Below, one piece after another: positions 2,495 to 43,465 of a stretch of 64,000 bases of DNA; position 1 is the first letter of the stretch, and every line of letters begins with the position of its first letter. The notes under the pieces are model-generated. The model did not search any database. It was given only the letters and a program-made list of their open reading frames with translations, and was not told the DNA's origin. Source of the stretch: Vermamoeba vermiformis. Its lineage: Eukaryota. A program made the position numbers and the translations under genes. The DNA lies in contig JBEWZL010000184.1 of assembly GCA_045837725.1 (NCBI GenBank), positions 248,001-312,000 of the forward strand. Direction: 5' to 3'.

Positions 2495-5400
2495 ATGCTG
2501 CAAGCAGTAAGCATCAAGAACTACTTGTCGTTCAAGGAGCAGAAAAGGCTCCAAGTTCGGGATGGCAAACTGGTCGTTGTCGGGGAAGGTTAGTCGCTTG
2601 GCAAAAAATTGGATTAATAATAATTTTGAATAATATTCGTGTAATCGGAATACGAGTGCTATACTATTGGTTGGAATTCAGATCAACTATAAAAAAATTC
2701 TCTTTCAGCAATATTCGTGATTAATTTCATTTCAATAGTAAATATGATTAATACGGCTATAGTAATATATTTAAAATTGTTATTTCGAATTTGATCATTT
2801 CACTGAACGGTTTTTTTTACGAACAGACGGAGCGGGCAAAACAAATTTATTTAGAGCCGTTAAATTTGCTTTGCAATCGCAACCTATTCGATGGAACGGT
2901 GAGGCCATGTGCCCTTGGGATTGCAATGAAGAACTCGATGTCTCCATCGATGTCGACATGATCCCAGAAGACGTCGTAAGTTTCATCCTTAATATCGATT
3001 ACTATGAAGTATTAATTTTCCTTTTTAGGCAATATTACGAGATTTTATCACGTTCAAGTTATTTTCAAAGTTAATTGATTATTGCAAAGAAGACACTGGA
3101 ACGTACATGGATCAATTTGAAGCGTTCTTAAAGGTACCGCTTTTTCCGCCTTATTTTCATAATCTTAACTATACCATATTAGGACAATGACGTGTTTAAT
3201 CAATTAAGGCTCGGATATCGTAGTGAGGCCTTTAACAAGCAATATTTACAGCCGTTTTGTGAAACAGGCGTCAAAGGCCGCTATCAACTGATCTCGTTCA
3301 GACACAACACTCAAATTGATTTTTTTGCGCAGTGTTTGCCTGAAGACGTCTATAATAAGATAGATAAGGATGATTTAGACAAGCCACTCAATTTCTCAGG
3401 GTTCTACGGCAACAGTTATTTCACGGCTAAATGGGAACAACGAGCACTCAAGATGCAAGAAATAACAACTGGCATGCGTCAAATCTCGTTCAGTTTGCTC
3501 ATCAGAAAAATGGTTGCCACGCGATTTGTCTTCTTTTCTGACGTAAGCCCGAGACTTGGTCCCGTGAAATTTCGTCTGACAGTACTTTGCAGCACATAGA
3601 TTCGTTCTTGGCTGGCTCAGAGTCACTCGTCAAAGCGATAGACTATGCAGGGAGAAGCTCTTGTTCGAAAAGAAAATGAGTCGGACACGACAAGGCCGCT
3701 TGGAGTTCAAGACGATTCAAGAGCACATGAAGCACTTGGCCAATATCGTGCCTGATGTTGGTCTCACGGACACGACATCACGCCTCTCGGTGCGTTTTGG
3801 CGAGTCTGACACTAGCACACTGTTGCCTCGCGTATTTTTCACCGAGGTCGATGGTCACACTTTTGACGCAGGCACTGCCTCGAGTGGTGTCGCACGCTTG
3901 CTGACAATACTGACTATGGTAAGGCTCGGCACCTACATATAGTAGTACGTGATCTCGTACTGACTATTAAACTAGCTTCATACCACGGACTACTTGACAT
4001 GCTTCTTGGACGAGCCACTTGAAACTCTTCATCCCGCGCTAAGACATCACATGCGCGATCATTTCTTGACGGTCAAAAATAAGGGTAAGCTTAGCTATAT
4101 GATTAAAACGGTTGCTAATGGCCTCTTTAGCTATTATCATGATCACCCATGCTGGCGAAATGATTGTGCCGCCATTGTTGGACCACACTTACAGACTCAG
4201 AACGCAATTCAAAAATAATCAAGGCGCGTCAACTGAAGTGTACGATATCAAACAGGTCTTAAGGGCACGCAAAGATATCAAAATGGAGTTGATTAATTTG
4301 TCCGTGGAGTCCAGCTTCCGAGAAATATTTTTCACGCGGTCAGTTATTTTCGTCGAAGGTGTCAACGACAAACGAGTGCTGGACAGTCTCAGCTTTGTCA
4401 TTCGTCACAAAAAGAGCGTCAAACTGCACGACATCAAGCACATTCATTGGTCTGTCATTGCGATCGGCGGCAAAGGCCGGTTCCCCGCTGCAGTTCATTT
4501 AGCCAAGAGCATGGGCCTCGAGTGGGTCTGCATCATGGACTTGGACGCGCTGCTCCCCGACGACGAGCACATTCGCGCGCAGTTGAAAGAGAACGGCTCC
4601 AAGGCCAAGCAAATTGATGTGACATTCCACGAGTACAAAGACACGTTGCATCAAGTCTTGCAGGACCTGAACAAGATTGCCAACAAGAAAGGCTTGGCAG
4701 TGCCTCAGAACCCAAGTCCATTGCCTAGTCCTAGCCGGACTGTCGCAACATCTGTAGGCTCCCCGCCAGACCTTTTGCCCGCCCCTCCTCTCAGCCCTGC
4801 CAGCGAGAGTCTTGCTAGCGAAACACCCGTCACATCTCATCCCTCTGTCACAGGTGCCAACAACAACAATGTCACGCAACAACAAGCCAATGCTACACCT
4901 ACTATCACCATCTCATCGACTCCAACTGTCGTGCCTCAAGTGACAGGTGAAGACAGCGACTTGACCAAAGTGATCGAGTACATTAAAGACATCAAAGCAC
5001 GCGTGGACATTTCACTCAAGACTGTTGAAAAGGGTAAGTGACACGTGTCATTAAATCCAAATCGTTATTGTTGGCTAATCTTCAAGGACAGATCGTCACA
5101 AACTGGAGGCTCAAGGTGACTTGGAACGATGGAACTTGGCGAGCACACATCAATCAGCAGCTTATTTAGTGATTAAACAGCACTTCTTGGGTCCTAATGA
5201 GGACTACTTTAACACCAAAAATCACCACTTGGATGCGTTTTTGAATTACTGCAGCGAACGACGCGTCTTTTCATGGCGTAATGGCGCACTAGGTACATAT
5301 CGTAATCGTGATTATAGGTCTCATTATATTAATATATGCAAATTAGAATCATTGTTCCAGATCACGTTCCCGGATTTCACCAAGAGCCGATGGTCAAAGT

Positions 5401-6524: not shown

Positions 6525-6824
6525 TTTTTTCCTCGTGCCAGTCAGTAATTTTTAATCTTCGATCCCACTCTTGTAGTGCCTTTGCGCCGGTTTCTTCAAC
6601 AAGTTTAATTTCGGCTTCGGATAATTTGTAGTCGCTCATATTGAATTATATTGTTTGTTGTGGTCTTGTGCTCGCAATTGACGTGTTAATTGAATTTAAT
6701 TGTCACGCGATATTACTTCGTAACGAAATTCCGCGTTTATTTATCGCATTTCATTTATTACTACCACAGTAAGGAGACTACATGATGATAATAAAATTGC
6801 CCGTAATATCCGCGGATTTCGTGA

Positions 6825-8248
6825 CTAAATGAGAAAGCAAACCGCGATGACTGCCAACGAGATCCATCCTGATTTAGAACGATTAGAAAGCAGTACAACA
6901 GGTGACCAATCATACCATTTAGATCAAGTAAAATGCTAGAACTAATTCGGCTAGACTGCGGTGCTGCAGGTTGGTTCAAATTAGGATTATAACTGTAAGG
7001 CACGGATGTACGAGGAGGCGCGACCGGACGAATGCCAGTTGTTCCGTTCCAAGCCCACCATCGTTCTTCCATAGCGTAAGAAAAGCCAGGAGCATAAAAG
7101 TAAATTCTGTTTCGGGATGTGGTCGCCAACCAACCTCCGCCTCCTGAGTTCGGCAAAGGAACGGTTTCCCAACGACCAGATAAGAACATAATATCAGCGA
7201 TATATGCGCGAGTAGGTTCGTCCGCCGAACCAGCGACAAAGAGCACCTGATCCCCTAAAAAAAAAGAGTTATACTTGACGGATCTCTACTTCAACCGGAT
7301 CGTACCTGCGGATCCAGCAGCCAATCTCGTACGAGGCACACTTAACTTAGCTCTGCCCCAAGTGTTATTAGAGCCATAGAAGATGTCAATTCTGTCCGTG
7401 ATCCCGTTCGCAGCATCACCTCCAGCGAAGAAGGCCAAGTCACCAAGACCAACAGCGGCAAGACCAGTGCGCTTCAAACTTAACTTGTCTTGCGACCAAC
7501 TAGCATAGAATTATTAATAAATAAATATTTAAATTACTGACAATAATGTGTACCTCTCGGTGTCAGCGTCGTAGATCTCAACAACGTCGGAATATTCAAT
7601 CGGAAACCCTCCGGCAAAAAATGCTCGCGAACCAATGACTGCTACAGCAAGATTTCTTCGGGGATTGGTTAACGTAGCAGTAGTCCAGCTATTATTCTAT
7701 TTTTCGAATCAGTTCTTGGTTGGTCGGACTTTTACCGGCCCAAAATTTTAACGTACCTTTGCGTGATAAATATCAATGACATCTGAAGGCACATCATTAT
7801 AGCTAGTGTCTCTTCCTCCTACGAAAAGAATTGAATCGCCAACTACGGCAGCAGTCGGACCTCCTCGCGGACGGCTCAATCTGGCGGTAGTCCATTCTTC
7901 AGCAAAAATGTCGAAGATTTCAACCAAGTCAGTGACATCATTGTCCGTATCTCCACCGGCAAAATAGACCTTATTGTGCAATATTGCTGAAGCAACGGCA
8001 GATCTGCCAACCGAAAGTTTCCACTTCATATTCGAGTAAGAAGTGTAGCCGGTAATGTTGACCATATAAACCATTTTAGAATGGGTGTAGGTGTCACGGC
8101 CACCAGCATAAAACATAAACTGGTCATTGCTAGTCAACGAGGTGTCCATCAGATTGAACGGAAGTCTGCCACCAGGAGACCACTCAGCGTGGCTAAAGCT
8201 AACTACAAGCACGAATAATACAAGCGTTAAGTATTGAGAACCAGACAT
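6825..8248 (-). CDS. Secreted or surface Kelch-repeat protein with hydrophobic C-terminal tail (GPI-anchor-like)
   Basis: Signal peptide MSGSQYLTLVLFVLVVSFSHA and repeated FAGG..VEIFD..W..ARLS.PR Kelch units. The spliced last exon reads GWISLAVIAVCFLI*. Confidence 0.8.
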
Positions 8249-8460
8249 ATTGTTGTTGTCTGTTTGAAAGAGTCAAATAAAGCTAAAAGAATGAGCGGTA
8301 TTTAAGCGCTCGATTCCGTAAAAAAGAATGTGACCCGGAGCAACTTTGTGATTCAATCGAGTTTGACTCTGTGAGCGATCACATGTCATAATACTTCGTT
8401 TTTCAGTTTCAATTCGTTTAATTACCTTCTGACGCTATTTTAGGACTGTTATATACATTG

Positions 8461-11400
8461 CTACATTATTTTGCACGAATCCGATCCGGTCACAATAACC
8501 GCACCTAAAACCGGTTGGGTTAATAGTCATAATTAAGGGTCTATTAACTTACCGCATGCACATTTATCGCCTACTCTAGCCACACTTTTGCCTCCAACAG
8601 TCGTAGAGCTCTTTTTAACTTTTGAAATTTTTGTCTTGCCGTGGATGTCGCACATCACCTGTAACAAATATAAATTTCGTATAAAATGTTAAAAAATAAC
8701 ATGACATACCTGCGAGCCCTCGACTGCAACATGTAAATTGTCGGCAGTAACACTGGCGTCACCAGTGATGACCTTGCCTCCGTGACTAATCAACGAGCCC
8801 ACCACAGCTGATTTGTCCTTGTTTTGAGCTAGCATTCGCTTCAACCAGGCAACTTTGCGTCGATAAGCCTCTTTGTAGGGATAGTCTGGAGGATCTAGGC
8901 CCCATTCTTTTTCGTAAATGTGCCGCCAGACTTGATCACTGGATAACATTGCAGACCACACCGAGCACACATTTGCTGCGCTCACGAGCTGACTGAGTGA
9001 GAAGTCGTTGAAAAACGATAGAAATATCTCGTTCGGGACCTAAGAAGAAAAGTTAGGGTTTGAGATCTGATCCGGATCTGGTGACTTTGACGTACCGAGT
9101 TGATGAGACACCGCCATATATATCCATTATCATCCAACGTCTGAGTAACCAATGGGTTCTCAATGTCTCTAAATATCAATTCGCATTTCAATACATCAGC
9201 ACAATCGTAATAAAGGTTGTGCCAAACGTCGTTGTAAAAAATACGATTCTCGATATCATCATAGCCTGCGCGATTATATTCAAGCTCCTTTGTCCTTTGG
9301 GATACTATAGGCTCCATTTTAATGTACAAAGGAAGCTTTTCTAGGTGCTTTTCAATTGCTGGCAAAAAACGTTAGTTTTGGTACAATAGGTTTGGTTATC
9401 GTACGTACGATATGTCTTTGATAATTTCAAAAATAGTGCCACTTCTAATGGAGTAGCTGTGTCGGCGTGCTTAGACACATAATCGTGAAAGAGGTCGAGC
9501 GTGTTATATTTGGCCAAAATATGCTCGAACTTAATTCCCTTCACTGAAAATTGTGAAGTTAGTACGAGTTGAGGTATACGTGATATTACTCACAGTATTC
9601 GTGAATGAAACACAGTAGCATTAGGTGACGATTGGAACCTCGTTCGAGCAGCTGATGTAAGAGAGGCATGAGTCCAATCTCGTCCATCACTTCTTCTTTC
9701 AGTGCACCTATTTCTCGTTGTTAGATCATTGACAGGTTTAAACACATACGTACCTCTATGTATACATCGCATTAATAGAGAAAAGATATCGATGTTGGAA
9801 ATTTCTGTTTCTGATTTGACCGGTTGTGTATCGCGCTCTTCCGGTTCATCAAAAACAGCACCAAACCCATCTGCATCATTAGCCGAGCGATTTAATTTCG
9901 ATGGCTCGGCTGGCGCAGGCAGAGTTTGTTCGAATCGGTTTAATAGCTTTTTCAGGAATGCCACATTGCTCATCACTTTGCATGCCTCTTCGTCTGCAAT
10001 CCATTCTTTAGCACAACTCGAGACATTTTGACGGAGTCTACTTACGTGATGTTTCACAGGCATGAGCGATAAAGTAGAAACAAAGGGCTTCCAATTGTTC
10101 GTTGTTTGACGCTGCAAATTCTTCGGCAAAGAAAGACGATTGACTGGTGACGTAATTGTCAAACTCCGGACGAGTAGATAAAACTATAATTATAGTATTA
10201 GTGATGTAGAATGACTGATAGTATTGTACGTACCAATGATACTTTTGAAGAATGAATATAATATCTCCCTATCTTCGTTTGTTAGGAACTGCAGCAAAAT
10301 CTTATTCATCGTCTCAGGCAGCCAATGTTCGTTTTCAAAAGTAGCTACAATTAGGAACATCTTCTTCGTGTACATCACTTTCATGAGGCTGAGCAAAGAT
10401 CTGCGGCACACGATGAACTCTTCTGTGCTGACATGACACGTGTCAAGTGTCAACTTGTGGAACCATAAGCAGTCTTTCACTAAGTCTAACATGTATACTT
10501 GTGCTAGTGATATGTTGTGGTTGAGACTGTCATAGTATCCGATCTTATTCGGGAACGTTTGCCAAAAATTCTGACGAAGTTCATCTGTCGCAAACGTTAG
10601 TTTCATGAAACACTTCCGCACCTAAAACTTACTTGGAATACAGCCAATAACAGCTAATGTATTTTCCATATGACCAGGACCGATATTATTTGCCATAATA
10701 AGGTCGAGCAGAGTCGTAGCTAAGCATAACGTTAGACGTCAAAAATTATGCATGAAACACGTACTTCTTCCGATTGGCACGAAGAAAAACTCTCGTCTTA
10801 ATATCTCGAGCCAAACCTGGCCTTGCGTAGACTTCATCATTTTGCAGATGATTGTAATTGTCTTTTCGCGCATTGTATCCGAGTCTTGGAACATGAGCAA
10901 AATCAAATGAAAGAAATTCTCTTTGGAGATCGTTTGAGAATACTGCGTTATTTGCCCTACTTTCGAGTATTCGAAGGCTGTTCATATATCAAGTCAATTC
11001 TAGTCAAAAATATTTGGAACACGTACCGTCAACAAACTGATCCTTTACACCTCGTTGAAAATCCATCGTCCAAGGTAACATTGGATTCAACTTGCGAGAT
11101 AAATCCAGAAAATCGTTTGCTCGAGGAAAAACATCGCCTAGCAGTTGTTAGACATAGAAAAAAAAGTGCGTCGACTTGCCTCGATCCACGAGCTTCCAAC
11201 AGTTTTGAACTAATAGAAGCTTCTTCTGAATTTGTGATTGGTCTACTTCGTTTATATTCAACGAGATGCAATGCAACAGAAAGTCGCAGAATTTCATTTT
11301 GCGGAGCGCATCCATGACTTTGGTATAATTTACTGTGCCTCGCTCAGTTGCTTTGAGATTGACTAATGTCTTCGAAAACTCTAATAATAGCTCGAGGTTC

Positions 11401-12301
11401 TTCACTGAAAACAGAAGATCGACCAAGAAGCGATTGTCCAAAAATAGGTTCTGGATTTCGTCGCTATCTGGTGAAGCGACCATCTCTAATATTAAGGCCA
11501 GCTTAAACATATTGTCTTTGTTGAATAGCAGCTTGAAGTAATCCTCTGTTACAAATTCGTTATTATTGAAATTAACGGCAAAAATCAATCGGCGCATGCG
11601 TAACTTACGTCTTCCGACCAATAAAAATGTCAAAATCACCTTGGCTGCTTCTATTGAGTATGGTGAATCGGGGTTTGCATAATCAAGAATCATTTTCATG
11701 CAATCAGCGTAATCTTTGAAATTGACTTCGATAGACAGTGGTGAATCCACGAGCAAAGCGGCTAAAAATCGAAGCATCTCCTTTACGAGCAGTGCTTCAT
11801 TTCGTTTGAGTACATGCTCGAAGTAATCAGACATAATGAAGCCTTTGTCTTTGATAGACATCGTCGATTCTGCGGTAAAAATAGATCAGCTCCTCACGGC
11901 ATATGATAAGTATAATAATTCTTACTCGTATTTACAAAATAGCAATATTTACATATCGTAATATTTTTGGAGAAGCCCATGCTTCTAATGACTTCTGAAG
12001 TCTGATCTGATACCATACATTTTTTACAACAATGGCTATCGCACTCCTCGCATTTTTTCTAGCATTTAATTAGTTTCTCCGTATCAATTAATATATCAAA
12101 AATTATAGAACTTACTTTGCGATGATTGAGGAGGCTGTAAGTATGCCGACAGATTGGACACGCATCGTCCTATGTAAACAAGAAAATTGTTATTCAAATT
12201 AAGCTATGTTGCGGTAATAATTAATTAACCGTTCAATTCCAGAATTAGATTTGCGGCAGTAAAGTAAAGTCGATCTAAGAGCCTACCTTCCCTTCGCTCA
12301 T
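8461..12301 (-). CDS. FYVE-like Zn finger + helical (ARM-like) region + F-box + C-terminal PAAR domain
   Basis: N-terminus CPIC..HRKKKCEECDSHCCKKC..ICKYC. F-box VPNEIFLSFFNDFSLSQLVSAANVCSVW. PAAR SHGGKVITG..CDIHG..VARVGDKCACGAVIVTGS. Splice junctions from about 11000 to the stop codon were checked by hand and keep the frame open. Confidence 0.8.
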
Positions 12302-12614
12302 TGTTGATGCTTGAAACGTTATGTTAGCTAGTTAATATCTCTCATGATTGTTAACATAAACAAACGAATAATCAGTTCAATGAAAAGATTCACCGCCGTA
12401 AGTCACGTGGTTTCGGTGAACTTTAAATCCCTTAGTGTCCCATTCATATTTGTAAGGTGTGAATCTTAAACCTTACATGTATTGGTCCCATGAGCTACGA
12501 AATAACGTTGGAGTAAGCTTGGTTGAAAATTTCGGTATTTTTTTCTGGCAACGGTTACTTTTCAATTCCAATATTTGAAGTCGTAACATTAAGCACAATA
12601 AGAGCATTATAGTT

Positions 12615-29840: not shown

Positions 29841-32800
29841 ATGTAGGTCGATCAAGTGACAAGATTTGGGACGGATAATTAACGCTTTGTTATAGGCTAA
29901 ATCAGTGGACAAAAATCTCGATATTTTTTGTGGCTTTGATACTTGCTGCATCCTTGACAAACGGTACGCACAGCGATTTTTAGTCCACTGCAATCTTCAA
30001 TTCGTTATTCTCCTTTTAAATTCGCTTAATACCTGGTCATTTTACCAATTCGCTATTCTAATTTAATATTTTAGCGTGTTTTTCCCCGTTTAATATGACG
30101 ATACCTCGCCCGCAGATGTCGATCGTGGAGGCAAAAGACAATTTCTTCTTCATTGGAGGAGGAACCGAACCTCAGCCAATTATAGACATTTACGATGCCA
30201 AGGCGAACATTTGGAGACCTCAGATCCAGCTGTCGGATCAACTGCGACGATTTGCCGGTGCGACAGTAGATTCGAAAGCAATTTTCATCGGCTCTTATAA
30301 AAATGATACTGATGAACTATTCATATACGATATTGATAGCGAAAAGATATGGCAAATTCCAGTCTCTCATAATTTTTCTGTTATCCCTGATTGGCAAGAC
30401 GAATGGAGATCTATTTCAGTTGGAACCAAAGCGTACTTCGTTAACAGCAATAGAGTGGTTATAGTAGACGTATATACCAACACATCAATGACTATACAAA
30501 GTCTAGCTGGACAAAATCCCAAAGCAACGACGAACGGAACACATCTGATCCTGGCTGGCTATCAATTATCGCTGCTAAATTTGGAAACATTAGAGTGGAC
30601 TAGAGAATCAAGTTTTGGCATTTCCTTACCAATAGCAGTATTTTATATCAATGATACGAGAAGAACACTGATTGTGGTCGATTACAAGAACCTGTACGTG
30701 ACCTCGTTGGATGAGCTTAACGGCCAATCAATAGTGTCACTCAAAGAGTCTGCTAGCGCAGCCAATTTGATAGACGATGCTATTTATCTTGTGGGCCAGA
30801 CCGGAGTTACCGTTGTTTATTACGCTAACGTTGGACGTTCAACACAGTATGACCAAGTTACGAACGTTTTTTATCAGCTCGGAAGCACGGATATTCAAGC
30901 ACATCGGTCGATAGTATACAAAGGATCCATATACTACACTTCAAGAACGCCAGCAGTTTATCGAATGGATCTGCAATGGTTATTTGTCGACATGGATCTG
31001 CAGGTGAACAACGCCACCGACTACGCATTTGCAACAGCTGTCAACGGATACTACCTCTACTTCAACATAGAAGCTTCATCGATCCACTATTATAAACTGT
31101 CAACTGGCCAATTAGGAATCGTCGAACAACGAAATTTCCCGTCATCATTCAGCCAAGACAGCACTGCGTCAATTGGCAACAAGCTTCTCGTGCTAAGATA
31201 TCCAGAGTACGATACTTTCCACTTTGAAAGTGGCTCTTGGAACACATCAGCCTTGCCGTACAATGTGTCGAACTACTTTGCTGTCAGCAACAATGACAAG
31301 TACGGTTTGTTCTACAATGATGCAGATCCGGAATATTTTTACTTGTTCAACGTGGCTCAGAATAACTGGACAAGCATTGACGCGAAGATCAACGGAACTT
31401 ATCTTTTTATCGTGCAAGACAACCTTGTCGTTGTGACAGTCGACGGCCAGTTGAACATTTACGACATTTTGACGCGACAATGGCGTTCACCAGCGTTGGA
31501 GCCAAGTGATATGATAGTAGCGACTCAATACGAAACAAGTATCGTCATAGTTTCAAGAGCTGATTCAACGACAAATCTAGTGATGTATGATGTTTTGCAA
31601 GCCACATCCACCGAAATGAAGGGATTTGTTGGAAAGCTTGGAACAACAGTGGAAACTTATGGAGACTTTATCGTGTTTGCTTATGCAACTGATAACGCGG
31701 AAACTCAGACCATTAGAGTCGCTGTATTCAACGTCAAAATGTTTTCGTGGAACACCGTGGATCTGCCTCCCAACTTTAGCAACAATGGTTTGGTACTCAA
31801 TATTAACAACAACTTAGCGTATTTGGCAAGACCTGAACGCGTTGAAGTCGTTGATTTGGTCACGCTAGCTGTCAGTACAATCTCGGTTCCAATCAACCTT
31901 CCGAGCGAAATCCTGTTTGTTGGCAACAAAGTGGGATTCCTCAGCTACTCTCAACAAACAATATTATTCACTATGTACGATAGTACGATCAAGACGTCAA
32001 CGCAACTTCAATTCGATTTTCGCTATTTCGGAAATGGAAAAAGTCTCCGTCTTACAGACAATTATTTTATCGCTCAGCTACAAGGCAAAATTCAGTTCTT
32101 GGAATTTCCGACCTTATTCAATGCAATGTCAGACGCGAAGATCTTCATTGGCCAATCAGCTAACTTTACTGCGACTCCAAGCGGAAAAATATTTTCTCGC
32201 GCGTACTGGCAAGACAAATATGGAAACAATTTAGGAAATGGATTCACTCTGCCATTGCGCAATGTCTCGCTCAATGACGGAGGCGCGTACACAATCAACA
32301 TCTTCGATCAATGCCAACAACAAATGCAACAAAGTGCTCAGTTAGTGGTCTACGATGCACCGCTCTTCTCGTCTATTCTTAGCGACGTTGTAGTCCTTTG
32401 CAACAGCAGCACGATTGTATCAACGAGCGCGTTTGGCGAACAAGTGCAATATGCGTGGACCATTGACGGTGCGTTGGTCCCCGGCAACTCTTCGCAAGTC
32501 AACATCACAGTCGATAACCTTCGCTGCGAATCAAACCACAAGCTGTGCGCCATTGCGTCGAATCCTTCTGGCTCCTCTCAAATGTGCTCGTTTCTGGAGG
32601 TCTTGTCAGTCGACTCCGTATTCGACGGTCCCCGCCCCTATGTCGAACAAAGCCTATGGTTCTCGGAATCTCAAATCAATCTCCACGTGCAATTGCTCGA
32701 CCCCGAATGCACTAACCACACTTGGCTGATGAACGGTGCTAGTATGGGCGTCTATGGAACTCAGCAAAGTGACATTACAGTGCATATGTCAACCAAGCTT

Positions 32801-34347
32801 GAAGACACCGAGTTCCAAGTAGAAGCATTGTGCATCAACAACGTGATCAGATCTCGCCCTTACAAATTCAAGAACATCACCTCATTGACTCCGTTAGGCC
32901 TTTCGTTGATTGTCATCAGTATTGCTTTAGTCATAGCAGTTCCTATATTAGTTAGTATCGGGTACCGAAGAAGACTCAATCGCAGCAAGAGACAGCAAAT
33001 GGATCTAGAAATGCGTTTGTCACAAGCCAAAACCGAGTCAATTAGAGCAAAAGATAATGTCACAATCCTTCAGCCAACGACTTGGGAGTGGCTCCCGACC
33101 GACGACTACACTTACAAGGCAATCCAGGAGCTGCCATTCAACGTTGACTTTTCAGCACTGAATTTCTCATCAAAGAACGCGGTTGAAGTTGATGTGTTCG
33201 TACAGGGCGACATCGCTTTCAGCTCAAAGAACAGCGGAAAAGGAGTCAAAATGCCGCTCTTGGGCTCCAATCACCACGTTGACATCTACGTCCCGAAATC
33301 TCCCAAGTACGAGATCATCGCCGAGCCGTCCAGTTTTGAAGTCAACTCTAAAGCTCCAGTGCAAGCGACAGTCTCGTCGAAATTAAGAATGACAGCCAGG
33401 TGCAACATCTGCTTGATCGTAGTCTGCGAACAAGATCAGACCTATTCAGCCATCGAATTCAAAATAGAAAGTAAGCCTTCAATGTGGATCGATATCGAAG
33501 AAGTACAAATGACTGAAGAGTTTCTTGGTGGAGGAGGGTAAGCCCGTGAATCTAAAACATTTAAGTAGTCTGACTCGCTAATACTGTTGCTAGATTTGGT
33601 TCTGTGACACGTGGTGTTTATCGTGGCCAAGACGTTGCCGTTAAAAAACTACTTTTGCAAGCAGTCCCCGAAGAGATCATCACAGAGTTCGAGCGCGAAG
33701 TCTCGCTCATGAAGAGCTTGCATCATCCTAATATTGTTCAGTTCGTCGGAGCCTCGAATGTGCAAAACAATCTTTCCATCGTGATCGAGTTTGCGCCACT
33801 TGGAAGTCTCGCCAGTGTGATGAAGAAACAGCGACTCGCACAGAACCTCAAACTTGTCATGCTTATAGAGACCGCCAAGGCACTTCAGTTCTTACACTCG
33901 AACGGAATTGTGCATCGCGACATCAAGCCACAAAATATCCTCGTTTTCTCGTTGGAACCAAAAGCAGCTGTTCATGTCAAACTGACGGACTTCGGCACTG
34001 CAAGATTTGTCCCAGACAACGCTACAAATGTCACGAGAAATATCGGAACATGTGGTTATATGGCACCAGAGTCATTGGGCAAGAAACCCAAAATAGCAAA
34101 GAGTGCGGATGTGTACAGTTTTGCAATCTTGATGTGGGAGGTCCTCTTCGAACGAGTCCCCTTTGAAAGCATGAACTGGCAATCAGATATTGAAGCGCAC
34201 GTGCTATCAGGCGAGAGATTGCCGTTCCCAACCTCGCCGCGCGTACAACCAGAGATCATACAATTGATCGAGGAATGCTGGCACCAAGACCCGTCAAAAA
34301 GACCCACAATCACTTCTGTTGCTCAACGAATAGCTGCCATTCTGTAG
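29841..34347 (+). CDS. Single-pass transmembrane TKL-group receptor kinase with Kelch-like propeller and Ig-like ectodomain
   Basis: Spliced signal peptide MLNQWTKISIFFVALILAASLTNA; TM segment LGLSLIVISIALVIAVPILVSIGY; kinase motifs LGGGG|FG, VAVK, HRDIKPQN, DFG and YMAPE. Confidence 0.9.
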
Positions 34348-35081: not shown

Positions 35082-38000
35082 ATGTAAATGCATCACCAGT
35101 TTCTAACCTTTACTGACACTTCTATCATTAGGATGCAGCTCAATAAGGTACAGTTGAGCTCCGTTCTTTTAATTTGTATATTATGTATCGTACCAGTGCA
35201 GCCATTTAACTGCGCGACAGGTGAGTAAACCGCAACCACCACTTATTCCTGACTAATACCAAATCAGACACGTATTCTGGGGGACCCTATTCCTTCCATT
35301 CTATTGACAGCACCGTCCTCTCGCTTATCCCTACGCTGTTTCCTGAAAGCACGACTCCTAACGCAGCACTTGTAGATCCAAATGTTGACGTTGTGGTGAC
35401 GTTCACTTCAGTACGTATCGGTTAATATTGTTAGTATAATCATGCATCCAGTCTCATTAATTTCGTCATTACAGAAAGCTACGATGAATATAACGTACCT
35501 CTACGAAGGAGCAGGTTATGTGAACCAAGTCGGGTAATTAACTAACATTGCGGCACATACGATTCAATCAAGTAAATTGACACTTGACCTCGGTATCAGG
35601 TACTACCTCGTCAACCCTACGACCTTGGCGGCATATAACAAGACAATCATCTTCCCTGCGGTTCGTAACATTTCGAAGGGCGGTTGTAATACACCGGGAG
35701 ACACGGTCTCAATCGGCCCATTCGCCGCAGGTATGAAACTGCGCTCGCAGCAAATGCTGATCATCATTTAATCGGTTCTTGCAGGCACCATATTGGGCTT
35801 CTTCGTCAATTCAGACGGCTACGAGGTCAATCCTTACTACACGTTCTGGAGTTACAACACTAGCAAGATTGTCAATCCGGACGGCTACAAACACACTGCA
35901 TGGGCTCGTGTCAATGGTGTAGTCATGATGGGCTTTGAGGACTTGTATGGTCTCGGTGACAAGGTATGTAACGCGAACACACTATTCCGGATGTGAGTCA
36001 AATTAATCATGTTTATTTTAGGACTATAATGATGCTATGATTACTTGGGCCGTTGATGGTAACTACACCGCGGCAGTCCCTGATTACTCCGGTGGTTACG
36101 TCCAAACTTGCGAGAGTACATCCATTTTCAGCTATGTTCAATACAACTGTTTGCAATACGCCGTGCTTCAAGGTCTTACCTCTACTTCTTGCGTGTCATA
36201 CATTGGCGTTCCTAGTGGCTGGTCTATTGCCGACAATACTGTTGCTTCCCGCACTGCCCTCAAAACTTACGCTTCGAGTTTGTTCACCAGCGGAGTTACA
36301 TGCATTCTCTTCTCTGACGGAACTGGCTTAGACGTCTCTGGCAATACCTGCAGTGCCACTATCTCTACTTACAACTCAACTTGCTACGCTGTTGATTGCA
36401 GCTACCGTCTCCTGTTGGTCGGATCTGCTATTGCTGGCTGCACATCCACAACCAGCACGTGCACAGCCTCAGTTGCTTCATCTATCTTGTACCAGACTCC
36501 AACTACCAAGTCCTCTACCGATAGACTCTATCCCTCCGAGTATGCTACCTACTTCAATCCGACTGCTACTTCCACCCCATTGAAAGTGAACTTCACTTTG
36601 ACTAACAAGAGCCCTCTTGTTGACGTCATGATCGTGCTCGACTTGTTAGGCATGACTAGCAACACTGTCGATCAAGTCAAGAACTACGCCAAGACCTTCT
36701 TCAACTCGCTTACCAATGCTGGATACAGCGCTCAAGTCGGCTTAGCCACCTTCACTACCTCAGGTTCTACTCATAGTGAGAGCTACTACTCTTATCTCAC
36801 GTCGTCATCTTCGACTCTTTCATCCAACATCAACAGTTTGACTTGGACATCCACATCCACTTCGACTAGCCCGTCCCTTAGTCTTCAAGCTATCGCTTCT
36901 GTAATGCAAAACTCAAACGTTGGTTGGAGAACAGGTGCCTTCAGCTCCGTTATGATCATCACTTCTCAATCGTACAGCACTTATCAAGACTTGTCTTCCC
37001 TCAGTATTAGCACCGGTGTCGTGCCTCTGTTCCTCGTCTTGAACACTAACAACGACAAGACTGCCTACAATTCCTACTCATCTTTGGCATCTGCTCTGCC
37101 TTTGTCATATGCCAGCTTCATTTCTTCGCCGACTGCTTGGTACTCGACCGGCCCAACCTTGGTTGCATCCATGGTTACGTCAGTGGTTGCTCGTCCTTTA
37201 AGTGACTCTTACGGCTTCTTGACTGCCACCGCCTCATCTACCTTGAGCGTCGGAAGCTCAACCGTACTCTACTTCACCGCTACATACCCTGCTAGCTTGA
37301 CTGCCTCTTCTGTCTCATGGCCTGTCACAGCTACTGTCCGATTGTTTGGCTACGCGAGCCCAATCCTTATCATCTCAGCCAACACTCCTCCTACCTTGAC
37401 CTCGATCGGCACAGTCTCCGTAGCTGAGAACTCGAACACTACCATTACTTTGAAGGCCTCTGATGCTGAAGGCAACACCCTCTCGATCTTGTTCACGTCT
37501 GTCACGCACGGTTCATTGTACACGACCAGCGGCGCTGCTGTCTCACTCAACACTGCTTACAGCTCCTTCTCAGTCGTCTACGTTCCTACTACCAACTACT
37601 ACGGCGCTGCTAGCATCGGGTACAGTGTGACTGATGGATGTGCAACGACTTCTGGCACTGTGACTCTCAACGTGACCTTCGTCAACCAACCGCCTGTCGC
37701 CAAAGACTTCACTTTCACAATCTCAGAGAATGAAGCCACTTTGTCAAAGCAACTTATTAACTTCACGAACTACATCTCTGACGTTGAGGATGCCACTTCG
37801 AAGTTGACCGTGAAGATCTTGACCATTCCTACTTCCTTGGGCACTTTGCAATACACGTCTGACGGCAGCACTTACAAGAGCGTCTCTTCTCTTACCACCT
37901 TGCCTGGCTTGATCGTCCGCTTCATACCGACATCTTATCAATACGGCACTGTGACTTTTACCTACTCCGTGACTGACACGAATGGAGCTACTTCCAACAC

Positions 38001-40851
38001 GGCCACTGTTACTGTCATTATCAATTTCTCCAACACTCCCCCAACGTCAGCTAGCTTAACCGTGACTACTGCTCAAGACACAGCTGTTGCGATCGACAAG
38101 CTCTCGTACTACGATCCTGACGCTGGTCAAACGATCAAGTTGTACTTCGCTTCATTGCCCACTGGTACTTTGAACTCTGTCAGCACGAGCTCTGCTGTGT
38201 CATTGTCAACAGCCTTGACCTACACCGCTAGCTCTTCGTGGAACTTGACTTACACGCCCCCTGCTGGTGCTTATTCTGCTAATGGCGTCGTGTACACCAC
38301 GTTCACGTTTGTCGTTAACGATGGCTACGCTAACTCGACGATTTACACTGTGTCGATCTACGTGACCAAAGCTGTTGTCGTGAACACTGCTCCGACAGCT
38401 AAGGACTTCACATTCACAATTAACGAAGACGAGACCAGCACCACCGCCCAGACCATCTCTTTCAAGCCCTACATTAACGACACTGAAACTCCGAACAACT
38501 TGACCGTAGCTTTGTCATCGCTCCCTGACTCATCAAAGGGCTCCGTTCTCAACTCTGACGGAACTTCTTTGGTCGTTGGCACCACGGCCATTTCAAGCGC
38601 CGTTCGCTTCGTTCCTGCACAACACCAGTACGGCACAACAACATTTAAGTACACCGTCACTGATCCTAGCGGATTATCCGCAACTGCCACTGTCACGGTG
38701 ATTATCACTTTCATCAATTACCCACCGACTTCAGAGAACGTGACGATCACGATGAATGAGATCAGTCAACAGAACGCGGCTTTGGCTGCTCCTGTCGCGA
38801 TTGCTGGCGCTGACATTGAGAGTACTTCACTGAGCTTGGTCATCGTTACTCTGCCTTCAAAGGGTCTGCTGATCAATCCCAGTACCGGTAACTACATCAC
38901 TGCAGTACCTTACACACTTAGCGGTGGCTTGTCGTGGACTGTCAACTTCTTGCCTGCTCAATATGGCTACGGAACTCCTTACGACACGTTTACTTACAAG
39001 GTGTACGATGGTTCGAGCTACAGTGGCATCTACTACGCAACTATCAATGTTAATTACGTGAACCAACCTCCTACTGGCCAATCTTACTCGGGCACCACCA
39101 AAGAAAACACGCCATTGAAGGTCACGTTATCCGCATCAGATCCCGATGATGACACTTCGACATTGGACACGCTCTTGCTCTCGTTCTCTTCGACTACTGC
39201 CGGCACTTTCTACACCGATTCTTCGTTGACCACAACGATCTCAGCTAACACTCAACTCACTGGCACTACCTTCTACTTTGTTCCCAGCGACGGTGTTTAT
39301 AGCGTGCCAGCTACATCTCCTGTCGTCTCATTCACGTTCAAGATTGTTGATCCTCATGGCTTGACCTCCACATCAACTTACACTGGTGTCATCTACGTGA
39401 CCTTTGTTGATAAGCCTCCTTACTATGAAGGCGCCTTGAACATCACTGTCTACGAGGAAGCCGTCGCAGCTCTCAGCTTGGCTTCACTCGGACAAGTCAT
39501 CAATAAGAATGATGCACAGACCCCGACCTACACCATCACCATTACTCAGATGATCTCGCGAGGTTACTTGTGGGAATGCACTGACGGCTCTACCTCATGC
39601 ACGCAGTGGAACATTTCAACCACTCCTTACGTCGTCAAGAACACTGGCTACACCTTGTACTTCACCTCGTTGACTGGAGATCACGGAGAATCACCTGACT
39701 ACTACTACGCTACCTTCAAGTTCACCGTCTCAAGCTCTACGACCTCACTCGTGAGCGCTGAATACACGTACACAATCTTCGTTCTGCCCGTCTGGCACCC
39801 ACCAGTGGTTGTCCCCAGAACATTTGCCGCGACTCCTTCTCGTACCTACACTGACGAGAACACACCTTTTGTCTTGGAATGGACTGCCTACAACGTTGAC
39901 AAAGAGTTCGACAATTCGACATTGACTTCAAGAGTGTCAGTGACCTCTGATTACGCGTCCAAGTACTACTACTGCGTTGAGTCCTCCGACAATGACTGCG
40001 TTCAGGGCAACGAGATTACATTGCCCGCAACTATTACGGCCCTCAGACCTGCTTTGTGGCGAATTCTCTTCGTGCCCGAGACCGACACTTATGACACGCT
40101 CAAGTACGCGACTTTCACGTTCCTTGCCACCAACACCGAGACTGCCTTGTCATCTACTGGTGTCAGAGCTATTATGGTCGTTCAACCAATCAACAAGCCT
40201 CCAACTATCACCGCTGGAGACATCACTGTTCAAACACCCGATGACTTGACTATTGGTATCGGAAGTGTCTCCGTTGCTGACCCTGATGCTGGCTCCAAGA
40301 ACGTTTACCTTGAAGTTTCAGTTGTCAGTGACACTACAACCTCAGTATCGCTCTCAGTTTCGACCTACTTCACGCACACTCATTCAGTGGCTCCTCCTTG
40401 CACTCAGACTACCAACCAATCGTTCACTTGCACGGACTCACAATCGAATCTCCGCACTTACCTCGCGTCTCTGTACATCAAGCTTGGCGACAACAGCACG
40501 TCCTCAGTGATGTTGAACATCTACGTGAATGACTTGGGTCACACTGACAAGCTCAACAGAGCCCTCAACGCGACTAAGAACATGACCATCACGATCACCG
40601 ATCAAAGTGCAACCACTTCGAGTAGCCCAACAGTCGATAATGGTGTGCCTATTGGTGTTTCGATTGCTGGTGCCGCAGCATTGGCCGGAGCAGCAGTGTT
40701 GATTTGGCGATTGAAGAACAAAGCTGGCCCTGCTGACGATTACTTCCAGTCTCTCAACTCTGGCTCGAATGATGCAAGCACCAATCCGCTGTATCAAGAG
40801 CGCAATCAGACTGTCCAATCACCGCTCTATCAAGCAAAGAACGTTGTGTAA
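35082..40851 (+). CDS. Sib-like (similar to integrin beta) adhesion protein: DUF4114-like, vWA, tandem cadherin/Big-like repeats, TM, NPxY tail
   Basis: Signal peptide; GFEDLYGLGDKDYND; vWA DVMIVLD..VGWR; repeated N.PP.A..FTY.V.D units; Gly/Ala-rich TM; cytoplasmic NPLY and SPLY. Confidence 0.8.
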
Positions 40852-40915: not shown

Positions 40916-42099
40916 CTAGTCTTCCTCATCTTCTACAGGCTCAGCTCCCCACACCACAACACCGTACATCGCCGGTACTAACTCGTTGAGACGACTTTGC
41001 GTTAGTATGGCGAGCTGCCACGTATTAAGATCTCTCTGGTAATAAGGTTGGCCGGGTGTGCCGGTCCGCTTGCCCATGGGACCTGAAATGGAACCATAGC
41101 CGTACGTAGTTTGTTCCCACTGAGCGAGATCCAATATGTCCAGCCTACAGCCATTCACCTTGCGGTCCCACTCGTCTTCATGAGCTGGCACCAGCGAATA
41201 AAAGTCCAGCGATAAATTGTCTTTTCGTGCAACAAGTTCATTTCTCGGCTCCATCAGAAAGATTACAACGGCCGGGTCATCGCGCATAAGTTCAGCTCGC
41301 CGTTCAGCCCATTCTCTGGCTGCGTTCCAATCATCACCAACGTAGAATCCGAGACGATAGCAGGGTATGAAGTCCGTCGAGCGACAAGTTGATAAACGAA
41401 TGTTGTCAATGATACTAAGCGCGCTGGACCACGTAGTGCCGTGATACAATAACCCCTTGCCTTGCTCTTCAGCGTAAGACCGCAAGTCTTTGAGTGTTAG
41501 TTGTAGCTGCGACTCCATCCCTTCTATTGTCCTAGGTGCATTATACACGCACAAGTCTTCTCGAGTTGAAGAATTAACGTTGTTGGAGGCTTCGCGAATT
41601 GAGATCCACGCGCCTGGCTCAGTCGAACAACGAGTTGCTTGCAAAATCCAAAGGTTCTTGAATAAACCCTCAACCTCCTGAAGCAATGTAGTATGGGCGC
41701 CCATCTTTTGAACGGCGTTGACTATTCGTTGGGCTGCATCATGAGTGAAGCAGAAGTGTTCTTCAAGCAGCTCCAGCTCATCGGACCGCGATGAAGGCAC
41801 TGATGCCAATTTCATCTCCGCAAAGTCGAGAATCGCCTCGTTGTCTGGCGTAACATCTCTTACGAGTGCAAACTTATTCATTACCCAATCTGCGACCTTT
41901 AAAGCATTATTAAAAAATATTTTATTAAATGCAAACAAATTTACCGAAAAAATGTACGCTTACTTTACCAATATCAATTCCGCCCCGTTCGAAGCGAGCT
42001 AGTATTTCGTGAGCCCAGTTTAGCTCATCTTTTGCAGGAGTATCCTATTCAACAGGTCAATCGTTCGAACGAAATTGATTAGCTAAGTAGGCGTACCAT
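40916..42099 (-). CDS. DUF3990-like ADP-ribosyltransferase-fold protein, paralog 1
   Basis: LYHGT, TDF..GFYVG, SISGPM and TWQLAI motifs; three exons, the first being ATG only. Confidence 0.7.
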
Positions 42100-42296: not shown

Positions 42297-43465
42297 TCAC
42301 GTATTGGACTCACCGCCCCACACGACGACACTGCACATTGCAGGCACTAGTTCGAAAAGGCGACGGTGAGAAATAATTGCAAGTTGCCACGTGTCAAGGT
42401 CTCGCTGCCAGCAGGGCTCGTCTGCGGTACTGCCTCTTTTGGTCATTGGTCCAGAGATAGACCCAAGCCCTTCTGTTTGTTCCATCCATTGATGGCTGTA
42501 GCCCCTAGGCAGGTCCAATCGACAGCCGTTGACCATTCGGTCCCAATCATCTTCTTGTCCGGATCCATCATACAGATCTAACGAGAGATTATCCGGTCGT
42601 GCAATGAGCTCTTTCATTGGCTCCGTTCGATAGATGAGTACAGCAGGGTCTTCGCGAAGATATTTTGATGCTTTTCCTTCTGCCCACTCTCGAGCTGCAA
42701 ACCAGTCGGCTCCAAGATAAAATCCGCCAAACTCTTCTGGCACAAAATCTGTTGCACGTCCAGATATCAACCTCGGTTTACGAATGATATTCACTGCACT
42801 GGACCACGTTGTGCCATGATAGAGCAAGCCAAAGCCTAAGCTCGCCGCCTGAGCCCATAATTCTTTCAGTGCCATTTGCAGCTCGTCTTCTGCACCGCTG
42901 ATCGTTGTTGGAACGTTGAATATGCACAAGTCGTCGCTACATTTTGGATCCACATCCTTGATGACTTCGTGCACCGAGATCCATTGGCAGGGGGTACTTG
43001 AACAGCGGCTAGTTTGAAGGATCCACGCGTTCTCAATCAGGTCAGCAACTTCTTGCAAAAGAGTAGTATGACCCATCCTATGTACGGCGCTGATGATGCG
43101 TTCAGCGCTTTCCTTTGTGAACAAGAAGTGTTCTGTAAGAAGTTGAAGCTCATCGGTCCAAGACGACGGAACCGAAGCCATTTTCACCACTAAAAAATCA
43201 AATATGGCGCTACTGTCATCTAAATGCCACCTGAGTTTCACAAACTGAGTTGTCAGCCAATCCACGAGCTGAAAGGAAATAAGTAAGAATTCAAATCCAG
43301 GATCAGCTCAACGCAGTTGTCTTGAATTACCTTCAAAGCAGTTATTCCTGCACGCTCGAATTTTGTAAGAATATTCTGTGCCCACAGAGGAATTTCATCA
43401 GGAGAAGCGGAGTCCGATTCCTAAGCTCGATCAGTACTTTATCAAACCACGTTAAGACTTACCAT
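42297..43465 (-). CDS. DUF3990-like ADP-ribosyltransferase-fold protein, paralog 2
   Basis: Same motifs (LYHGTTWSSA, TDF..GFYLG, SISGPM, TWQLAI) and the same exon structure as paralog 1. Confidence 0.7.

Follow-up and report, generated by a model that had tools for sequence, protein, structure and literature searches.

The question raised by this locus is whether a eukaryotic F-box protein can end in a PAAR domain, a module familiar from the spike tips of bacterial contractile injection systems, and what such a protein could be for. The locus occupies positions 8461-12301 on the minus strand of a 64,000-nucleotide (nt) stretch of Vermamoeba vermiformis DNA (GenBank assembly GCA_045837725.1, contig JBEWZL010000184.1, positions 248,001 to 312,000), hereafter the window. 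A reading made from the sequence alone (the sequence-only reading) had proposed here an F-box protein with a C-terminal PAAR domain and an N-terminal FYVE-like finger. The first observation, an F-box protein ending in a PAAR domain, was confirmed, and the locus is a genuine nuclear eukaryotic gene. For a domain that is already known, both the architecture and the host kingdom are new, and the family is very small. Indeed, in the passages that we draw on from four papers (PMC3482391, PMC10715212, PMC5014421, PMC12407873) PAAR is treated only as a part of contractile injection machines, and a full-text search of the literature, which did not extend to the supplementary alignments of PMC3482391 and PMC3113570, yielded no account of a eukaryotic PAAR or an F-box–PAAR protein.

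Gene structure and transcript evidence

The spliced gene comprises 17 exons and 16 introns, with a coding sequence of 2961 nt, zero internal stops and a product of 986 amino acids (aa). Introns are 42-117 nt long, 15 of them GT-AG and one GC-AG, and direct reading of the minus strand over 8300-12500 revealed GTAAGT or GTACGT donors and CTAAC-type branch sites. The borders of the three terminal exons given by the sequence-only reading (8710; 8658-8553; 8504-8461) were found again on the minus-strand sequence, and its C-terminal peptide was reproduced by scripted joining of the exons. The F-box and the PAAR domain stand in a single reading frame and partly in one exon (9039-8710). With the F-box and the initial 34 residues of the PAAR domain encoded by this uninterrupted exon, assignment of the two to different genes is excluded.

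The structure of the gene is mirrored by a JGI protein of 923 aa (P0001), encoded on a 3073-nt contig and retrieved by a word-indexed search with a 116-aa piece; its automatic JGI annotation already carries the tags PF05488 and PF12937. P0001 is uninterrupted across every predicted intron of the window gene. This includes the two introns said to hide the PAAR domain from the track of open reading frames (ORFs), both of which proved to be GT-AG introns. Three fragments (P0060, P0002 and P0003), 87-96% identical to P0001, turn non-homologous exactly at introns of the window gene, after EGSQ, VDRG and IHIY. As the fragments enter introns at the intron sites of the window, P0001 looks spliced and the fragments look genomic, with the same introns. 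The whole coding region and its F-box–PAAR end are laid out as follows:

8461 to 12301, minus strand: whole coding region; residues 71-985 align with residues 1-922 of P0001 in a single BLASTP segment at 66% identity.
9040 to 9095, minus strand: intron immediately upstream of the F-box exon; transcript joint 9037>9094 (cut +2) in the X4 contigs described below, CT..AC on the plus strand, side of 166 letters.
8911 to 9036, minus strand: predicted F-box, model residues 829-870; Pfam F-box-like, 33.0 bits.
8812 to 8910, minus strand: predicted helical linker from F-box to PAAR, model residues 871-903; from the alignment of five modules and the structural model.
8710 to 8811, minus strand: first part of the PAAR domain, residues 904-937, sharing its exon with the F-box; the SHGG motif contains candidate ligand H913 (8784-8782).
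8659 to 8709, minus strand: first intron within the PAAR domain, 51 nt, GT-AG, phase 0 (GTATGT...ACAG); P0001 is continuous here and fragment P0060 enters the intron.
8553 to 8658, minus strand: middle PAAR exon, residues 938-973; candidate ligands C940 (8652-8650), H943 (8643-8641) and C972 (8556-8554).
8505 to 8552, minus strand: second intron within the PAAR domain, 48 nt, GT-AG, phase 1 (GTAAGT...TTAG); P0001 is continuous across it, and RNA coverage in this species is nil.
8461 to 8504, minus strand: last exon, which completes the PAAR domain and ends in TAG; positions 73-85 of a local profile hidden Markov model (HMM), 7.2 bits, in collinear order with the two preceding pieces.

Transcript evidence was drawn from the contigs of the X4 run, for which the label of RNA is a guess; no run recorded as RNA covers the stretch. 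Five skips in these contigs, with CT..AC on the plus strand, coincide exactly with the model introns 9040-9095, 10585-10632, 10720-10764, 10978-11026 and 11870-11925, and the X4 contigs thus derive from spliced RNA. The intron-bearing eukaryotic gene that had been proposed is therefore supported by a 16-intron model in which five introns are matched by X4 joints, one of them (11870-11925, from finger exon 3 to body exon 4) with a short side of only 24 letters. X4 record 1 reaches the border of exon 15, ending at 8708 (the two letters beyond 8710 being ambiguous), and 19 of its letters remain. In the depth table, the bin 8632-8775 requires 87 positions at the depth of this record, that is 68 + 19, and three neighbouring bins are reproduced exactly. 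By this arithmetic the 19 leftover letters fall within 8632-8707, where a splice to 8658 would put them. Hence the splice from 8710 to 8658 in RNA is seen indirectly, through the depth table and with no listed joint. From three RNA runs that carry the label of the source species, 0, 2 and 0 reads fell on the stretch, which is no test of the PAAR exons. For the expected single transcript from F-box to PAAR, a joint is seen upstream of the F-box exon, and the RNA evidence for the PAAR introns is indirect. Taken together, the spliced homologue, the common exon and the partial RNA evidence make the predicted single-gene F-box–PAAR architecture well supported.

The phases of the introns follow a regular pattern. 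Introns 4-14 (9040-11608, minus strand), eleven in a row, are all of phase 1, so that exons 5-14 are symmetric 1-1 exons; phase-0 introns occur only around the finger and inside the F-box–PAAR module.

Predicted domains of the product

The PAAR domain appears complete, with 83 aa at the product's extreme C-terminal end. Scored unspliced, its two main pieces match Pfam PAAR_motif at 21.7 bits (ORF 8692-9039, residues 81-112, profile 2-34) and 25.1 bits (exon 8554-8658, profile 33-64); each is singly below the 27-bit cut-off, and both are collinear in the profile and flank a canonical intron. P0001 reaches 43.6 bits over profile positions 2-69 of 70 (E 3.4e-11). With a local HMM made of 17 stand-alone PAARs and a further F-box–PAAR protein (P0010), the spliced C-terminus of the window gene scored 81.0 bits over positions 2-84. 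Run against all 2606 segments of the six-frame translation of the window, this HMM matched, in collinear order, 8692-9039 (27.5 bits), 8536-8688 (41.7 bits) and 8464-8526 (7.2 bits) and no others; unrelated segments reached 7.3 bits at most. Furthermore, an hhalign comparison of five eukaryotic modules with 23 stand-alone PAARs, all 23 of them PF05488, gave a probability of 99.7% (E 6.7e-26, 80 columns). The PAAR profile matches the solved PAAR chains 7pq5_L, 4jiv_D, 9rce_c, 4jiw_D, 6ox6_A, 8gra_J and 6p1z_D; solved PAARs are matched only weakly when the eukaryotic modules by themselves make up the profile (7pq5_L, E 0.0099; 4jiv_D, E 0.19). From the collinear halves, the P0001 score and the hhalign result, the PAAR identity predicted earlier can be regarded as a secure assignment.

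Conservation extends to the putative metal site. In 47 other PAARs, 16 columns reach a conservation of 75% or more, and of these 15 are kept in the window, 15 in P0001, 16 in P0010 and 13 in another relative, P0015. The residues H913, C940, H943 and C972 fall in columns conserved in 94-100% of these 47 PAARs, and they match in order and spacing the zinc ligands H14, C41, H46 and C74 experimentally shown in the PAAR of enteroaggregative Escherichia coli (EAEC) (PMC10715212). The H/C/H/C candidate metal site is thus kept, with C970 in the middle exon as a spare candidate ligand. The ligands named beforehand (the His of SHGG, the Cys and His of CDIHG, the Cys of CACG) accordingly stand as candidates in conserved columns. 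Over the PAAR domain the window and P0001 are 65% identical (54/83), like the whole protein. Three A-x-x-G copies are found at residues 905-909, 932-936 and 964-968, and in the window Arg and Asp are retained in the third alone; the Arg is variable in bacterial members as well.

For the last 168 residues of P0001, AlphaFold2 yielded from a 33-row alignment a model with a mean predicted local distance difference test score (pLDDT) of 85.6 and a predicted template modelling score of 0.74. It consists of five helices in the F-box and linker followed by strands only, with beta structure confined to the PAAR part. The ten-residue blocks over 81-160 are at pLDDT 92-97, and residues 104-160 belong to the PAAR domain. 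By homology, this domain would adopt the conical PAAR fold.

The F-box itself is predicted with more than one kind of profile. In ORF 8692-9039 the Pfam F-box-like match covers residues 2-43 at 33.0 bits (E 5.1e-8), above the cut-off of 24.3 bits, and P0001 scores 29.7 bits. The profile of the eukaryotic modules matches the Skp2 chain 1fs1_A (E 1e-5) as well as FBXL5 and FBXW8 chains (1e-5 to 2e-5), and the AlphaFold2 model shows three helices in the F-box region (residues 12-41), then the linker helices 44-55 and 64-81. From F-box through linker to PAAR, the window, P0001, P0010 and P0013 align without length differences, while P0015 has insertions of 7 and 1 residues; positions W74, V89, G90, S94, H95, G96 and G97 are invariant in the five modules. 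The alignment of the module profile with PDB chain 7z8b_F (FBXW8) spans the F-box and the linker and runs into the start of the WD40 domain, at an SH.G..I.G-like stretch. This likeness of the PAAR start to the first WD40 blade of FBXW proteins is probably superficial and due to chance.

The N-terminal part of the product and the one atypical intron are described by three further features:

11926 to 12301, minus strand: exons 1-3 (12301-12287, 12169-12116 and 12058-11926), candidate zinc finger from the translation, with four CxxC pairs.
9096 to 11869, minus strand: body, exons 4-14, about 757 aa, no Pfam family; introns 10978-11026, 10720-10764 and 10585-10632 are matched by X4 joints.
11138 to 11179, minus strand: GC-AG intron with a GCAAGT donor, required for the frame and for the P0001 alignment; fragment P0002 enters the intron at the same place.

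The translated finger contains eight Cys in cross-brace spacing (C9, C12, C26, C29, C34, C37, C59 and C62), and this spacing, C-x2-C ... C-x2-C-x4-C-x2-C ... C-x2-C, is FYVE-like. FYVE domains bind phosphatidylinositol 3-phosphate (PI3P) through the motifs R(R/K)HHCR, WxxD and RVC. None of these motifs is present in the window finger, where the corresponding stretches read HRKKKCE and ITICKYC, so the translation bears out the earlier remark that R(R/K)HHCR is lacking. Exon 3 alone, which is a part only of a finger split by an intron, gave zero Pfam matches at E ≤10. The FYVE-like N-terminal finger is therefore upheld in its eight-Cys pattern but not by a Pfam match of exon 3, and remains plausible, though weakly supported. 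As for the body, its four ORFs had no Pfam match at E ≤10 except one to Pet191_N (E 0.15), and the body of P0001 gave a sub-threshold CTK3 match only (E 0.03). Identity to P0001 across the three thirds of the body is 81%, 71% and 49%.

Relatives, origin and surroundings of the gene

The distribution of the architecture was examined by database searches. A phmmer search of 1.84 billion representatives with P0001 returned 57 proteins at E ≤1e-3, including 13 short fragments of the P0001/window family and one protein with two F-boxes only. As many as 42 of the 57 matched through the PAAR part only, most of them being 84-117 aa long and about 40% identical. The succession of F-box, linker and PAAR recurs in P0010 (PAAR_motif 67.9 bits), P0013 and P0015. 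The latter, also one of the 57, is a complete protein of 303 aa with an F-box at 42.2 bits and a PAAR at 32.4 bits, in which a different, acidic N-terminus stands in place of the 757-aa body. P0010 and P0015 lie on short contigs of 1074 and 1286 nt. Profile searches of a collection of 5.8 billion proteins added only P0060 and a few PAAR-only proteins, metagenome scans with P0001 and P0060 found nothing, and no viral contig matched the profile of the eukaryotic module. The F-box–PAAR family, within which the known sequences are 27-66% identical, is thus very rare, with the module in only a few clusters. The architecture did turn up elsewhere, in P0001 and, at a greater distance, in P0010 and P0015.

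The PAAR part alone leads to bacteria and phages. A search of bacterial genome contigs gave 23 loci related to the NCBI PAAR protein P0063, and none with another query, P0016. The window PAAR is 37-38% identical to PAARs of two betaproteobacterial metagenome-assembled genomes. In one locus (L001), a PAAR gene of 92 aa directly follows genes for a sheath, a tube (CIS_tube) and a spike (Phage_base_V/GPD), and in Burkholderia (L016) the PAAR gene lies within a VgrG cluster (GPD, T6SS_Vgr, DUF2345). A spike or VgrG-like gene flanks 17 of the 23 loci; in 9 there is also a tube gene, and the spike gene ends just before the PAAR gene. In addition, 39 phage records, 35 of them from Burkholderia phages, match at 37% identity. 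Given these sheath-tube-spike, vgrG and phage contexts, the ancestor would be the tip of a contractile injection system in the broad sense, not specifically of a type VI secretion system (T6SS). The earlier designation as a T6SS spike-tip domain is hence retained for the spike tip and widened for the system. The PAAR domain would descend from stand-alone spike-tip proteins of about 85-90 aa from bacterial or phage contractile injection systems, gained by horizontal transfer long enough ago to acquire two spliceosomal introns. A phylogeny, one of the checks suggested earlier, joined the window and P0001 with support of 99/97, but in this tree of 51 PAAR domains (88 columns) no other part was settled.

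Two observations on PAAR proteins were made alongside. P0023, P0024, P0028, P0033, P0036, P0040, P0051 and P0052 form a tight clade (100/100) in which each protein ends in a PAAR domain; full-length members have 428-545 aa, a signal-peptide-like N-terminus and no other Pfam family, and the C-terminal placement of the domain mirrors that of the window gene. In Burkholderia phage phiE12-2 (L024, 8735-9268), the gene of the PF05488 protein gp10 (177 aa) has repressor, ParA-like and toxin-annotated genes as its neighbours and does not lie among the tail genes.

The neighbours of the gene within the window are ordinary eukaryotic genes (Kelch, ArfGap-PH, RRN3, Arm, protein kinase), and Rfam and tRNA scans of the window found nothing. 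The PAAR gene is followed immediately downstream by two further Kelch-like ORFs (6764-8272, minus strand). At 4103-5038 on the plus strand, an ORF of 312 aa carries an OLD-like TOPRIM domain (Pfam 42.8 bits) and matches the PADLOC Old (48.7 bits) and GajA models; this bacterial defence-type nuclease domain on a eukaryotic contig is possibly another transfer. A long plus-strand ORF at 30062-34344 has weak Kelch matches and a hydrophobic segment and is followed by an ORF with a Tyr/Ser-Thr-type protein kinase domain, which together look like a receptor-kinase-type gene. An intronless Ser/Thr-rich ORF of 1609 aa (36022-40848, plus strand) combines VWA with the bacterial-type Cadherin_4, Cadherin_5 and Big_9 and ends in a hydrophobic stretch, and thus looks like an adhesin of bacterial domain type. 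Next to it, two adjoining paralogous ORFs of 347 and 336 aa (40919-41959 and 42300-43307, minus strand) have as their sole match a weak, sub-threshold DUF3990 on the first.

Possible function and comparison with known systems

The predicted product has four parts: a cross-brace zinc finger, the body, the F-box, and the helical linker with the C-terminal PAAR domain. F-boxes dock their proteins on Skp1/Cul1, and this one would do the same. The metal-stabilised PAAR cone would then occupy the usual position of the recognition domain in F-box proteins and could provide the docking site for a partner whose end is flat and threefold, in the way PAARs bind VgrG/gp5 beta-helices; such a partner might be foreign (the spike of an injection system of prey or symbiont) or endogenous. 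T4 gp5.4 and the PAARs of T6SS are monomers with local threefold symmetry. They attach to the flat end of a trimeric beta-helix by main-chain hydrogen bonds together with a hydrophobic patch, and this contact needs an intact metal site (PMC12407873). Since N-terminal extensions protrude from PAAR cores, and the extension here is an F-box adaptor, the protein is read as an adaptor of the SCF (Skp1–Cul1–F-box) type. The account that we lean towards, with slightly better than even chances, is that a spike-tip PAAR obtained by ancient transfer acts as the docking or recognition module of this adaptor; Skp1 binding, a PAAR partner and ubiquitination are what we infer from it.

Several points weigh against this account. 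The Arg of the A-R-x-G-D copies is present in 0/4, 0/4 and 2/4 of the F-box rows versus 17/47, 35/47 and 31/47 of the other PAARs, and with Arg replaced in two of the three copies the base surface may have changed. In the X4 contigs, PAAR exons 16 and 17 have no direct RNA coverage in this species, and exons 1-2 have no RNA support. The finger is absent from P0001, which starts after it. The PAAR tree lacks resolution; one origin of the four F-box–PAARs is not rejected (approximately unbiased test, p 0.40) and not shown. A tblastn search of the window gave no sheath, tube, spike or VgrG (best E 0.013). Lastly, substrates may really be bound by the 757-aa body, with the PAAR as a mere stabilising knob.

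From this last point arises the main rival, the second being a bacterial origin of the whole module. According to the main rival, which seems to us rather unlikely, the PAAR is a domesticated zinc knob with no spike-like partner: the body and the finger would choose the substrate, while the PAAR would stabilise or cap the C-terminus or make an unrelated contact. The large body is conserved, its N-terminal third being 81% identical to P0001 against 65% for the PAAR, and the altered Arg positions together with the lack of injection-system genes in the 64 kb around are in line with a mere knob. However, the whole domain has been kept, with 15 of the 16 conserved columns and all four candidate ligands, and P0015 retains the F-box–PAAR module though devoid of the body, which argues that the module works on its own.

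A docking PAAR could also be turned against intruders. It was suggested that the protein is an immune receptor or decoy, whose PAAR binds VgrG-type spikes injected by prey or pathogenic bacteria, or effectors riding on them, and hands them to SCF for ubiquitination, perhaps at the phagosome; we consider this improbable. The position of the PAAR after the F-box and the kept metal site would suit a receptor, the related bacterial PAARs adjoin spike genes, and tip binding, which relies chiefly on a hydrophobic patch and hydrogen bonds of the main chain (PMC12407873), could allow broad recognition. There is also a precedent in FBXO3, where SUKH, a domain of bacterial conflict systems, stands in the receptor position of an F-box protein (PMC3113570). 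Nevertheless, injected spikes normally arrive capped by their own PAAR, as is established and seen in the cryo-electron microscopy of EAEC (PMC10715212), which makes simple tip binding less likely; two of the three Arg positions are changed, and a family confined to a handful of clusters is unlike what is expected of a widely useful defence. The same doubt applies to the broader proposal of a phagotroph using the PAAR as the recognition end of SCF for injected or phagocytosed VgrG/gp5-type spikes, or for symbiont- or virus-derived beta-helices, in order to mark them and their cargo.

The second rival places the origin of the module in bacteria. It would have arisen there as an effector delivered by an injection system, with the PAAR loading it on the spike and the F-box hijacking the SCF of the host, and would have been taken over whole by eukaryotes. 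That the module is kept as a unit beside different N-termini, that PAAR proteins often carry extension domains (PMC5014421), that F-box effectors exist in amoeba symbionts (PMC3482391) and that P0010 and P0015 lie on short contigs of no settled origin would all agree with it. We hold it to be very improbable, as no bacterial record with the module was found in the 1.84 billion representatives, the 5.8 billion proteins or the viral contigs, bacterial genomes being weakly tested, and as the family fragments P0002, P0003 and P0060 read into introns. Finally, an artefact (chimeric assembly, bacterial contamination or two misjoined genes), which could appeal to the last two exons being without direct RNA coverage, is close to refuted and hardly credible in view of the exon shared by the F-box and the first 34 PAAR residues, of PAAR introns whose GT-AG signals and lengths match those found elsewhere in the gene, and of the recurrence of the architecture in P0001 and in the more distant P0010 and P0015.

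Returning to the PAAR as a docking module of an SCF-type adaptor, a piece of a bacterial weapon would have been incorporated into a eukaryotic ubiquitin-ligase adaptor. A conserved, intron-bearing and transcribed F-box–PAAR gene indicates that eukaryotes can domesticate this structural module, and the 83-aa domain offers a small, concrete handle on what the PAAR cone binds outside secretion machines. Should its partner be endogenous, it would be a new recognition domain of SCF ligases. A foreign spike as partner would mean a new kind of protist immunity, and if spikes are captured, an innate-immune receptor made from the weapon's own part.

These features can be compared with those of known systems. 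The finger resembles FYVE fingers in its eight Cys arranged in four CxxC pairs, and differs from them in the loss of R(R/K)HHCR and RVC and of any HMM support. With stand-alone class 1 PAARs (PF05488; 4jiv_D, 4jiw_D, EAEC T6SS-1) the window PAAR shares a full-length match of about 85 aa, three A-x-x-G copies, the motifs SHGG, C..HG and CG(A) with a candidate metal site of the H/C/H/C type, and about 37-42% identity to the best bacterial-type members; the PAAR part of the P0001 model is likewise predicted, with high confidence, to be all-beta. Unlike them, it is encoded by a eukaryote, interrupted by two introns and fused behind a 900-aa F-box protein, it has no spike, sheath or tube gene nearby, and it has lost Arg in two of the three motif copies. 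Francisella IglG (DUF4280) likewise combines a C-terminal tip domain with an alpha-helical N-terminal extension, which protrudes from the PAAR-like core and recruits another protein (PMC5014421). However, IglG belongs to the DUF4280 family, has four Cys, and is bacterial and secreted by the T6SS, whereas the extension in the window would be a eukaryotic ubiquitin-ligase adaptor. In FBXO3/SKIP16 and the fungal F-box–SUKH proteins, as here, the F-box is followed at the place of recognition by a domain of bacterial toxin/immunity origin (PMC3113570). In contrast to these, the F-box–PAAR family has a far narrower distribution, and the domain it would have captured is not an immunity protein but a structural part of an injection machine.

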